Shown here one piece after another: positions 37,354-40,408 of a stretch of DNA of 64,000 nucleotides. The notes under the pieces are model-generated. The model had not been told where the DNA came from, did not search any database, and saw only the letters and a list, made by a program, of their open reading frames with translations. Location of the stretch: contig VMGC01000003.1 in NCBI GenBank assembly GCA_007376385.1, forward strand, positions 1 to 64,000, read 5' to 3'. The translations under genes and the position numbers were made by a program. Source of the stretch: Parcubacteria group bacterium Gr01-1014_8. GTDB taxonomy: Bacteria > Patescibacteriota > Minisyncoccia > Phycocordibacterales > UBA2100. Each line of letters begins with the position of its first letter. The stretch's first letter is position 1.

Positions 37354-38238
37354 CTAGCGGGCATCCAAGGACTTTTCTGCATCAATGAAGGATTGTATGT
37401 CCCCTCCGAGCACTTTTTCAACGTCCCTGCGTTCATGCTCCGTTCTGTGGTCCTTCACCAATTGATATGGATGGAGCGTGTATGAACGGATCTGACTTCC
37501 CCATTCTATCTTTGTCGAAGTGCCTGCCGAAAGTCCTCGCGCCTCCTTATCTTGTGCTTCTTGCCGCATTTTAAACAGTTTCCCTCGAAGCATTTCAAGC
37601 GCTTTTTCTCGATTTTGGAGTTGACTCCTCTCGCTCGTGACATGCACGGAGATTCCAGTCGGTTTATGTGTCATTCGCACCGCCGTGTCCCGCTTGTTCA
37701 CATTTTGTCCGCCTGGACCACCTGAACGTGCAACGGTAATTTCAAGCTCTTGCTCAGGAATGTGCGATTCGCCGACATCGGGTAATTTCGGCAATATCTC
37801 AACTAACGAAAAAGAAGTTTGCCTCTTACCTGCAGAATTAAACGGGGACATGCGGACGAGTCTATGAACGCCTGCCTCTCTTTTTAAAGCTCCGAAAACA
37901 CCGGAGCCCGCTATCTCAAACGAGACGCTTCGGTATCCTCCCATTGTATTTTGATTTGAATCAATAAGTCCTGCCTGCCATCCTTTAGATGCCGCATACT
38001 TTCCATACATTTCAAAAAGAATGCGCGAGAAATCCTCCGCATCGTCTCCCCCAGCTCCAGAAACTATCGACACTATCGCATCCCCTTTGTCGTAGCCTTC
38101 ACTCCCTGCAAGCTGTTGTTTCAAATGTTGATACTCCTTCAATATTTCCTGCGCTTTATCTTTATTGCTCCAAAAGTCCGGCGCTCTCATCGCTGTCTCA
38201 ATATCCCCAATTCTTTTTTCGATAAGTTCTTTTTGCAT
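37354..38238 (-). CDS. prfB: peptide chain release factor 2 (short form, no programmed frameshift)
   Basis: SPF tripeptide ([15 protein letters not shown]) and GGQ motif ([11 protein letters not shown]). Single continuous 294 aa frame. Confidence 0.85.
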
Positions 38239-38239
38239 A

Positions 38240-38315
38240 TGGAGCCACCTCCCGGGCTTGAACCGGGGACCTACCCCTTACGAAGGGGTTGCTCTACCAA
38301 CTGAGCTAAGGTGGC
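38240..38315 (-). tRNA. tRNA-Thr(CGU)
   Basis: Cloverleaf GCCACCT...AGGTGGC, anticodon loop TTCGTAA, T-arm CCCGG-TTCAAGC-CCGGG, encoded CCA. Abuts the prfB start codon. Confidence 0.85.
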
Positions 38316-39995: not shown

Positions 39996-40280
39996 TGGAG
40001 CCGATGTCCGGGATTGAACCGGAGACCTCGTTCTTCGCTTACACCTCTCCTTTAGATATTCGAGAGGGCTAGACTGTATCTTCCCCCCACTTTTTTTGAA
40101 TTCTTAAAGTGGGGGACCCTTGTCAGTCGTTCGGGCGAATCAAGCAAAATGCTCGTCGCCACGGTCTGAACCTTTCGAGGCCTTTAACCGTAATTCGGGA
40201 TTCATTCAGACGTTACCGCCCGAATGGGCAGGGGTCTGCGACCCACCAAGAACGTGCTCTACCAACTGAGCTACATCGGC
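39996..40280 (-). tRNA. tRNA-Thr(GGU) interrupted by a group I intron between positions 36 and 37
   Basis: Exon 1 40245-40280 (GCCGATGTAGCTCAGTTGGTAGAGCACGTTCTTGGT), exon 2 39996-40035 (AAGAACGAGGTCTCCGGTTCAATCCCGGACATCGGCTCCA). Spliced product folds as a canonical 76 nt tRNA. Confidence 0.65.
40036..40244 (-). ncRNA. group I self-splicing intron (about 209 nt, no ORF) in the tRNA-Thr(GGU) anticodon loop
   Basis: 5' exon ends in U; intron ends in G (AAGCG). S-like element GAAGAUACAGUCUAG, R-like UUCAGACCGUGG able to form P7. P1 possible as GGU|GGG with CCUGCC giving U-G at the splice site. Long hairpin CCCCCACUUU...AAAGUGGGGG. Confidence 0.6.
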
Positions 40281-40408
40281 TAAAACATTTGCTCCGCAAA
40301 TGTTCGCCCGAACATTCGGGATTGAATGTTTTAGGGCCTATTGCGCTTATATCAGCGCAAATCGATACTAGCACGCACCCTCTAATTTCTCCATGATAAA
40401 ATTGCCAT

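Follow-up and report, generated by a model that had tools for sequence, protein, structure and literature searches.

A compact group I-type intron in the anticodon loop of a tRNA-Thr(GGU) gene from a Patescibacteria genome

The split tRNA-Thr(GGU) gene

The stretch of DNA analysed here, hereafter the window, comprises positions 1 to 64,000 of contig VMGC01000003.1 from Parcubacteria group bacterium Gr01-1014_8 (assembly GCA_007376385.1), and within it a tRNA-Thr(GGU) gene is interrupted in the anticodon loop by an insert that has the features of a group I intron. All positions given below are in window numbering. The gene lies on the minus strand, so that intron positions 1-209 run from 40244 to 40036. 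It is made up of three parts:

40245-40280, minus strand: 5' exon of tRNA-Thr(GGU), 36 nt, GCCGAUGUAGCUCAGUUGGUAGAGCACGUUCUUGGU, ending in CUUGGU, delimited by ARAGORN on the spliced sequence; it holds the acceptor 5' strand, the D arm, the anticodon-stem 5' strand, U32 U33 and the anticodon G34 G35 U36 (U36 = 40245)
40036-40244, minus strand: group I-type intron, 209 nt, between tRNA positions 36 and 37, without an open reading frame (ORF)
39996-40035, minus strand: 3' exon, 40 nt, AAGAACGAGGUCUCCGGUUCAAUCCCGGACAUCGGCUCCA, starting AAGAACG and ending CCA; it holds A37 A38, the anticodon-stem 3' strand, the variable loop, the T arm, the acceptor 3' strand, the discriminator U and an encoded CCA (39998-39996)

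Joined, the exons form a 76-nt tRNA-Thr(GGU) in which ARAGORN finds the acceptor, D, anticodon and T arms intact and the anticodon loop UUGGUAA. The original prediction for this locus, which was made from the sequence by eye, had the exon coordinates and their join exactly right. It also correctly described a 5' exon ending in U (U36, directly before the insert, at 40245), an intron ending in G (40036) and the lack of an intron ORF. The 285-nt precursor has a predicted folding energy of -116.4 kcal/mol against -87.8 ± 5.1 for shuffled sequences (z = -5.7), and none of 200 shuffles equals it.

Standard annotation does not register this gene. In its unspliced form it is undetected by the default mode of ARAGORN and by the Rfam tRNA model, and the source metagenome contig has no gene call spanning the tRNA/intron gap; exact copies of the neighbouring glutamate dehydrogenase protein are confined to metagenome contigs. 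The intron mode of ARAGORN does find a split gene with a 209-nt intron, placing the junction two bases early and labelling the product Arg(GCG). Its other intron-mode calls over the whole window (Pro, Leu and Pyl) are fusions of ordinary adjacent tRNAs and were set aside. Neither ARAGORN nor a profile of the intron family described below found a second tRNA-Thr(GGU) within the window, and the profile matches the window at the intron alone (nhmmer E = 2e-43).

The Rfam group I model is similarly blind to the insert. The original prediction had proposed a search with RF00028 as its check, and at the gathering score of 50 this gives no match to the window intron. In E-value mode the model aligns only the segment P8-J8/7-P7'-P9, at 15.3 bits (E = 0.2 in a 501-base search), and among 15 relatives it matches one, at 21.4 bits. 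Because RF00028 misses the family as a whole, as the literature concurs, the lack of a covariance-model hit, which the original prediction had offered as grounds for refutation, is not a valid test for introns of this kind.

Fold and covariation of the intron

Relatives were collected with two search patterns, both derived from the window intron. The first, GAACGACUR and GAAGAUAYAGUC separated by 25-55 nt, was taken from our assignment of the R and S elements and was run over one genome per species. It returned 42 loci, 27 with a full-length split tRNA and three more that are partial or cut by the end of the locus; the remaining 12 match in the pattern alone and were put down to chance. The second pattern covered P4 only (GAAUWACGGUYA and AGACCGURGC, 12-42 nt apart) and yielded at least 120 metagenome loci. 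Among the 120 listed, ARAGORN delimited a split tRNA in 106, with the first exon ending in UGGU in every one. All delimited loci are tRNA-Thr(GGU) genes split at site 36/37, with U at position -1 and G at the end of the intron. As the patterns were built from the window intron, more divergent members would be missed.

Two alignments were made from these loci: A1, the window and the 27 genome loci (28 sequences), and A2, 102 metagenome sequences that were ascertained independently. Run unguided on A1, RNAalifold recovered the four tRNA stems together with P1, P2, P4, P5, P6, P7, P8 and P9, with compensatory changes at 38 of 66 pairs, and the tRNA stems covary across the intron. The full model, including the pseudoknot between P3 and P7, was then written by hand, and its pair counts were compared with column shuffles. 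In A1, 94.1% of cells are paired against 79.0% in shuffles, with a covariation score of 0.465 against 0.173 and no shuffle out of 500 reaching the observed values, and sliding the partners by 1-3 columns brings pairing down to 30-47%. A2 gives much the same picture (92.4% paired against 77.3%; covariation score 0.424 against 0.149). The elements of the fold, in the order in which they are transcribed, are as follows:

40227-40247, minus strand: P1, in which G34 G35 U36 and intron G1-G3 (40247-40242) pair with the guide CCUGCC (intron 13-18, 40232-40227)
40203-40226, minus strand: P2 hairpin, intron 19-28 with 33-42, capped by the GNRA tetraloop GUAA (40216-40213)
40197-40199, minus strand: P3 5' strand CCC, intron 46-48, paired to GGG at 40119-40117 in a pseudoknot with P7
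40161-40191, minus strand: P4-P5 domain; P4 is ACGGUU (54-59) with GACCGU (79-84), J4/5 is A-rich, and P5 is GGCCU (63-67) with AGGUU (72-76)
40134-40160, minus strand: P6 hairpin, intron 85-89 with 107-111, plus an inner stem; compensatory changes at 3-4 of 5 pairs
40124-40133, minus strand: true R element CCGAACGACUGACA (intron 112-125), J6/7 and the P7 5' strand
40117-40119, minus strand: P3 3' strand GGG, intron 126-128, with J7/3 ACAA just before it
40084-40115, minus strand: P8 hairpin, intron 130-139 with 152-161, CCCCCACUUU / AAAGUGGGGG; compensatory changes at 4-5 of the 5 pairs counted
40069-40083, minus strand: S element GAAGAUACAGUCUAG, comprising J8/7 GAAGAUA, the P7 3' strand CAGUC (40076-40072) and U174 A175 G176
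40044-40067, minus strand: P9 hairpin, intron 178-183 with 196-201, with a 12-nt A/U-rich loop; compensatory changes at 5-6 of 6 pairs
40036-40038, minus strand: intron 3' end G207 C208 ωG209 (ωG at 40036); G207 and C208 pair with C7 and G6 of the P1 loop (40238-40239)

The splice-site helix had been part of the original prediction, and it holds up well in both alignments, with pairs that are either conserved or covarying. The wobble U36·G16 at the splice site is present in all 27 distinct sequences of A1 and in 101 of 102 in A2, the GGU/GCC pairs are invariant, and the first pair past the splice site covaries, taking the forms GU, AU, GC, UA and CG; RNAalifold predicts the same helix independently. 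In P2, compensatory changes occur at all ten pairs in A2 and at eight of ten in A1, and the loop is GNRA in nearly all 128 sequences. Short as it is, P3 is paired in 99.7% of cells in A2, with all three pairs showing changes from C-G to U-A, and in 97.5% in A1. P4 is invariant apart from its last pair, which changes from U·G to C-G, and P5 shows compensatory changes at four of its five pairs. The terminal ωG column is invariant in A1 and A2 alike.

The central helix of the core is P7, formed by GACUG (intron 117-121, 40128-40124) and CAGUC (169-173, 40076-40072), with an additional pair A115-U174 across the bulged C116. In the R element, A115 (40130) and the bulged C116 thus precede GACUG (40128-40124). 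P7 is directly followed by P3' and P8, which matches the topology required of a group I intron, and a double change that keeps the pairing sets it apart from the RF00028 consensus GACUA/UAGUC. The R and S elements, CCGAACGACUGACA and AAGAUACAGUCUA, are nearly invariant across the family, and P7 is invariant also in A2, whose search pattern did not include it. G117 (40128) and C173 (40072) are presumably the guanosine-binding pair.

Here the original prediction went partly astray. Its S-like element, GAAGAUACAGUCUAG (40083-40069), is real and falls within the partial RF00028 alignment. The R-like partner that it proposed, UUCAGACCGUGG (40170-40159, intron 75-86), runs instead from the 3' side of P5 through J5/4 and the P4 3' strand into the start of P6. 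This stretch is not a strand of P7, because the covarying P6 and the true R element separate it from P8, and because G79 follows its P4 partner when U59 changes to C59. The P7 that was built on it, UUCAGAC (75-81) with GUCUAG (171-176), has the wrong topology, conflicts with the nested covarying P5 and with the U59·G79 to C-G change, and uses bases of AGACCGU that pair with ACGGUU. The outline of a compact group I intron in the anticodon loop of tRNA-Thr(GGU) therefore stands, carried by the covarying P1-P9 fold, with a different P7.

Several other pairings were tried and discarded. An alternative P3 between intron 9-16 and 123-130 (GACCCCUG/CAAGGGUC) looks strong in the window, and its 5' partner sits in the variable P1 hairpin and is lost in relatives. 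GUCUGAA (34-40) with UUCAGAC (75-81) could be drawn as P4, a choice that conflicts with the role of 33-42 as the covarying 3' strand of P2. A P9.0 between J7/9 (UAG/UAA) and the bases before ωG shows no co-variation by eye in the alignment. Finally, the RF00028 alignment of one relative (L123) was considered as a helix guide and rejected for its low accuracy. As for size, precursors range from 246 to 330 nt across the family, and expansions of 20-40 nt in the P1 loop, P5 or P6 leave the core unchanged (L170:5686-5986, L087:576-905, L029:3010-3319 and L040:2501-2783).

Taken together, the U·G wobble in P1, the terminal ωG, the helices P3 to P9 in canonical order with a P3/P7 pseudoknot, the R and S elements forming P7, the bulged base beside a G-C pair and the A-rich J8/7 support the reading, from comparative sequence data, that a compact group I-type intron splits this tRNA-Thr(GGU). 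An anticodon-loop location is also common to the bulge-helix-bulge (BHB) introns of archaea and eukaryotes, which are removed by a protein endonuclease. However, the insertion lies at 36/37 rather than 37/38, and in place of a BHB motif the splice sites show P1, with its U·G wobble, and a G at the end of the intron. The helix order and the R and S elements are those of group I, and an Rfam search gave no group II match at the intron; we consequently give next to no credence to either a BHB or a group II intron.

That standard tools leave the gene uncalled could also be expected of a decaying pseudogene, or of two unrelated tRNA fragments around an inert insert, in which case no mature tRNA would be made. 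The original prediction had itself raised independent pseudogene halves as its counter-hypothesis. This is very improbable, and the pattern of conservation effectively refutes it: in more than 130 loci from many classes of the Candidate Phyla Radiation (CPR), compensatory changes have preserved the two exons, the bases at the splice sites and about 50 pairs of the intron. The covariation of the tRNA stems across the intron, the conserved gene order around the split gene and the lack of another tRNA-Thr(GGU) in the window argue in the same direction.

Distribution and kinship of the family

The genome records that carry the intron are titled Saccharibacteria, Paceibacterota, Yanofsky-, Wolfe-, Kaiser-, Moranii- and Peregrinibacteria or 'Patescibacteria group', with a few labelled 'bacterium' or 'Bdellovibrionales'. 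Three loci under the title 'uncultured Bdellovibrionales' (L021, L037 and L043) carry a split tRNA-Thr of the CPR type, and one of these, L021, is identical in its exon ends and its length (285 nt) to a locus from a Saccharibacteria metagenome-assembled genome (MAG) of the same study (L025). The Bdellovibrionales label is probably a case of mis-binning or mis-naming rather than of spread outside the Patescibacteria. A further Saccharibacteria MAG locus (L038:2008-2247, plus strand) contains a standard RF00028 group I intron (73.8 bits) in its 23S rRNA gene, which is unrelated to the pattern match that retrieved the locus.

The surroundings of the split gene are cellular, with genes for glutamate dehydrogenase, RF2, FtsE/FtsX, CTP synthase, a GMP reductase/IMPDH-family protein, GatA and LigA. 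The order split tRNA-Thr, RF2 (prfB), FtsE, FtsX, PyrG recurs in a Candidatus Kaiserbacteria MAG (L052) at 62-86% protein identity, and gene order is shared with Minisyncoccia, Patescibacteria-group and Saccharibacteria MAGs at about 50-70% protein identity. Gene order and similarity, at 54-86% protein identity with the Kaiserbacteria and Minisyncoccia MAGs, point to a Patescibacteria (CPR) chromosome. A phage tRNA cluster was considered and rejected, as matches to phage records are confined to the tRNAs and the genes around them have housekeeping roles in cells. At 40284-40329, immediately upstream of the tRNA's 5' end, lie two adjacent perfect hairpins, AACAUUC…GAAUGUU and AACAUUUGC…GCAAAUGUU, which give a spurious match to the Rfam 'Pox_AX_element' (22 bits). 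A scan for promoters and terminators around the split gene found nothing above shuffle level. The RF2 (prfB) ORF at 37354-38238 (minus strand) adjoins a tRNA-Thr(CGU) gene at 38240-38315, starting 2 nt after the tRNA; its product has 294 residues and matches the PCRF profile from profile position 86 on, and in four CPR MAG loci the alignment of this short form begins at residue 3-9. In the CPR genomes examined, RF2 seems typically to be short at its N terminus.

Introns of this description have been reported before. According to a preprint that summarises Castelle et al. 2018 (Nat Rev Microbiol), 15 introns of group I-like size and structure, undetected by Rfam, make up a 'divergent group I' class found in CPR tRNA-Thr(GGT) only (bioRxiv 10.1101/2025.07.03.662931). 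For three complete Patescibacteria genomes, Table 1 of Nakagawa et al. 2026 lists introns at 36/37 of tRNA-Thr(GGU); these were missed by RF00028 and found by the bacterial tRNA-intron model of tFind, two of them were called Arg(GCG) 34/35 by ARAGORN, and they were equated with the 'divergent group I introns' of the 2018 work (PMC13011429). The window intron shares host tRNA and anticodon with that class, follows the anticodon directly, terminates in G, measures 209 nt where the published class is about 200 nt, escapes RF00028, sits in a Patescibacteria/CPR genome and is likewise miscalled by ARAGORN as Arg(GCG). We see no difference from the published Thr introns (for example that of GCA_001029635.1) in a comparison made by description alone. 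The window intron is thus a member of an already known CPR tRNA-Thr(GGU) family, matched by published description. The find is real and, as the family was described bioinformatically in 2018 and again in 2025-26, not new. The original prediction had regarded the host and the insertion site as unusual, a view that must be given up. Site 36/37 is the classical intron site of tRNA-Arg(CCU) and tRNA-Ile2(CAU) (Williams 2020, bioRxiv 10.1101/2020.01.27.920355; PMC13011429), and the Thr class is on record in both PMC13011429 and 10.1101/2025.07.03.662931.

Where the family belongs among group I introns is less straightforward. The IC3 introns of Azoarcus tRNA-Ile2(CAU) and of Agrobacterium and cyanobacterial tRNA-Arg(CCU) share its site (Ile2.5Ug and Arg.5Ug in 10.1101/2020.01.27.920355, 36/37 in PMC13011429). 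They also share its small size, its plain P1-P9 layout and a GNRA-capped P2 that apparently docks on P8. This layout, with P2 present and P2.1, P5abc, P7.1/7.2 and P9.1 absent, is the minimal one typical of IC3. The Thr intron differs in its host tRNA, in a P7 of GACUG/CAGUC rather than GACUA/UAGUC, in its 3-bp P3 and in an L9 that is not a tetraloop. The published tree, however, places the Thr introns with IA and not with IC, on a long branch, and no Patescibacteria tRNA intron has been assigned to IC (PMC13011429). Compared by profile with a single IA and a single IC3 tRNA intron, the family gave short motif matches only, at P4-J4/5 for the IA intron and confined to the S element for the IC3 intron. 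The usual hallmark of IA1 and IA2 introns in the Michel-Westhof classification is a pair of extra helices, P7.1/P7.2, between P7 and P3'. These are absent from both the window and the family consensus, in which only ACAA stands between P7 and P3'.

Other tRNA introns of the Patescibacteria, in tRNA-Asn(GUU) and in tRNA-Asp(GUC), resemble the Thr intron in phylum, in their anticodon-loop location, in U at -1 and ωG, and in their grouping with IA in the tree. They differ in their site (35/36) and host tRNAs, are detected by RF00028, in some cases carry HNH endonuclease genes, and self-splice in vitro (PMC13011429). Similar wording is found at J3/4-P4-J4/5 (GAAUU-RCGG-..AAA). Between P7 and P8 a long stretch is present in the Asn example, and just ACAA and the 3-nt P3 strand in the Thr intron. 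The cyanobacterial and plastid tRNA-Leu(UAA) intron (Anabaena; Zaug et al. 1993, cited in PMC13011429) is alike in its short P1 and P10 and in exons that can be held by the anticodon stem, which in the window is predicted to form together with P1. That intron differs in being inserted at 34/35, larger, of class IC3 and readily detected by standard models.

Predicted splicing and its possible consequences

Two further putative contacts emerge from the alignments. In a long-P1 subfamily, to which the window belongs, C5-R6-Y7 of the P1 loop (40238-40240) are complementary to R207-Y208-ωG209 at the 3' end (40036-40038). The pairs 6-208 (GC/AU) and 7-207 (CG/UA) covary, with all four combinations seen. 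Pairing is complete in the 21 A1 sequences that have letters at these positions and reaches 90.5% in A2. In 76 of 128 sequences the P1 loop region contains the reverse complement of the three final intron bases, compared with 34.8 ± 3.9 when tails are shuffled among sequences (maximum 48 in 2000 shuffles). A short-L1 subfamily, with the tail AUG, is without this pairing. We hypothesize that the helix between L1 and the tail substitutes for P9.0/P10 in placing the 3' splice site, or that it holds ωG.

The second contact concerns the loop of P2. In 52 of the 72 sequences whose L2 is GAAA, P8 carries an asymmetric motif (..GCUA[AC].. // ..AUGC..) that resembles the 11-nt tetraloop receptor. Among the 56 sequences with GUAA, GCAA or GYGA loops it occurs in three, the other 53 having a plain G-C helix, as in the window (Fisher p about 2e-15, uncorrected for relatedness). 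This association suggests a tertiary contact between L2 and P8, and an L2-P8 contact is seen in the crystal structure of the Azoarcus ribozyme. In the literature on the Thr class (PMC13011429, 10.1101/2025.07.03.662931) we found neither the L1-3'-end pairing, nor the L2-P8 co-variation, nor a model at the level of covariation.

If the intron follows standard group I chemistry, the anticodon G34 G35 U36 would pair with the internal guide GCC (intron 16-18), setting up the U36·G16 wobble in P1. The core would fold as the P3/P7 pseudoknot with P4-P6, P8 and P9, with the L2 GNRA tetraloop packed against P8. Bound at G117-C173 of P7, an exogenous guanosine would attack after U36; ωG209 would then occupy the guanosine site, and the 3'-OH of U36 would attack the bond before A37, so that the ligated exons give the anticodon loop UUGGUAA. 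Formation of the 5-bp anticodon stem is compatible with P1 and, because P10 is weak, this stem probably holds the exons together, while the two bases before ωG, paired with the P1 loop, probably help to place the 3' splice site.

Some of our observations weigh against this interpretation. P4 and P7 vary too little for proof by covariation, and being nearly or fully invariant they rest on conservation and position. The shuffle controls leave phylogenetic relatedness in. P3 has only three base pairs and P10 is weak. RF00028 stays below its gathering score for the window intron and the 15 relatives, and our search of the literature, covering PMC13011429 and the preprint, found no splicing experiment on the Thr class, in vitro splicing having been tested for the Asn and Asp introns only (PMC13011429).

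It is conceivable that the RNA adopts a group I fold and yet is not autocatalytic, so that a protein cofactor or chaperone is needed in the cell. A core so pared down, with its 3-bp P3, weak P10 and few peripheral elements, could create such a need, and the large divergence from the RF00028 model and the lack of an in vitro test of the Thr class in the literature leave room for it. Nonetheless, the intron has no ORF and the gene no conserved maturase-like neighbour (its flanks are a hydrolase, glutamate dehydrogenase and prfB), CPR genomes are poor in proteins, other CPR tRNA introns (Asn and Asp) self-splice in vitro (PMC13011429), and the conserved L2-P8 and L1-tail contacts suggest stabilisation by RNA alone. 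We therefore consider a non-autocatalytic intron unlikely. We are fairly confident instead that this is a group I intron, most likely self-splicing, whose removal is needed to make tRNA-Thr(GGU) in this CPR genome, and that it belongs to a vertically kept, phylum-wide family at tRNA-Thr(GGU) 36/37.

A more tentative thought, which we regard as possible rather than probable, is that the Thr family forms a distinct minimal branch of group I, neither typical IA nor IC3, in which the 2-3 bp L1-tail helix replaces P9.0/P10 in the choice of the 3' splice site; alternatively, within such a branch, the helix could keep ωG sequestered until the first step is over. If true, this would be a mode of 3' splice-site definition unfamiliar for group I introns, in a ribozyme of ~170-250 nt with more than 130 natural variants.

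What still invites work on a family already described is a proof of catalysis by experiment, a model for Rfam and the two covarying tertiary contacts, L1-tail and L2-P8. Large, compact and richly covarying, the family would serve well as an Rfam seed and for work on ribozyme structure. Because tRNAscan-type tools and Rfam miss the split gene, CPR genomes seem to be without tRNA-Thr(GGU), which distorts estimates of completeness and inferences from codon usage. In the supplement of PMC13011429, two genomes with Thr introns show two Thr tRNAs by tRNAscan-SE and most other listed genomes show three, a count consistent with the split gene as the only GGU copy. If it is the sole copy, as appears to be so, then the threonine codons that need the GGU anticodon would depend on a predicted ribozyme in some of the smallest bacterial genomes.

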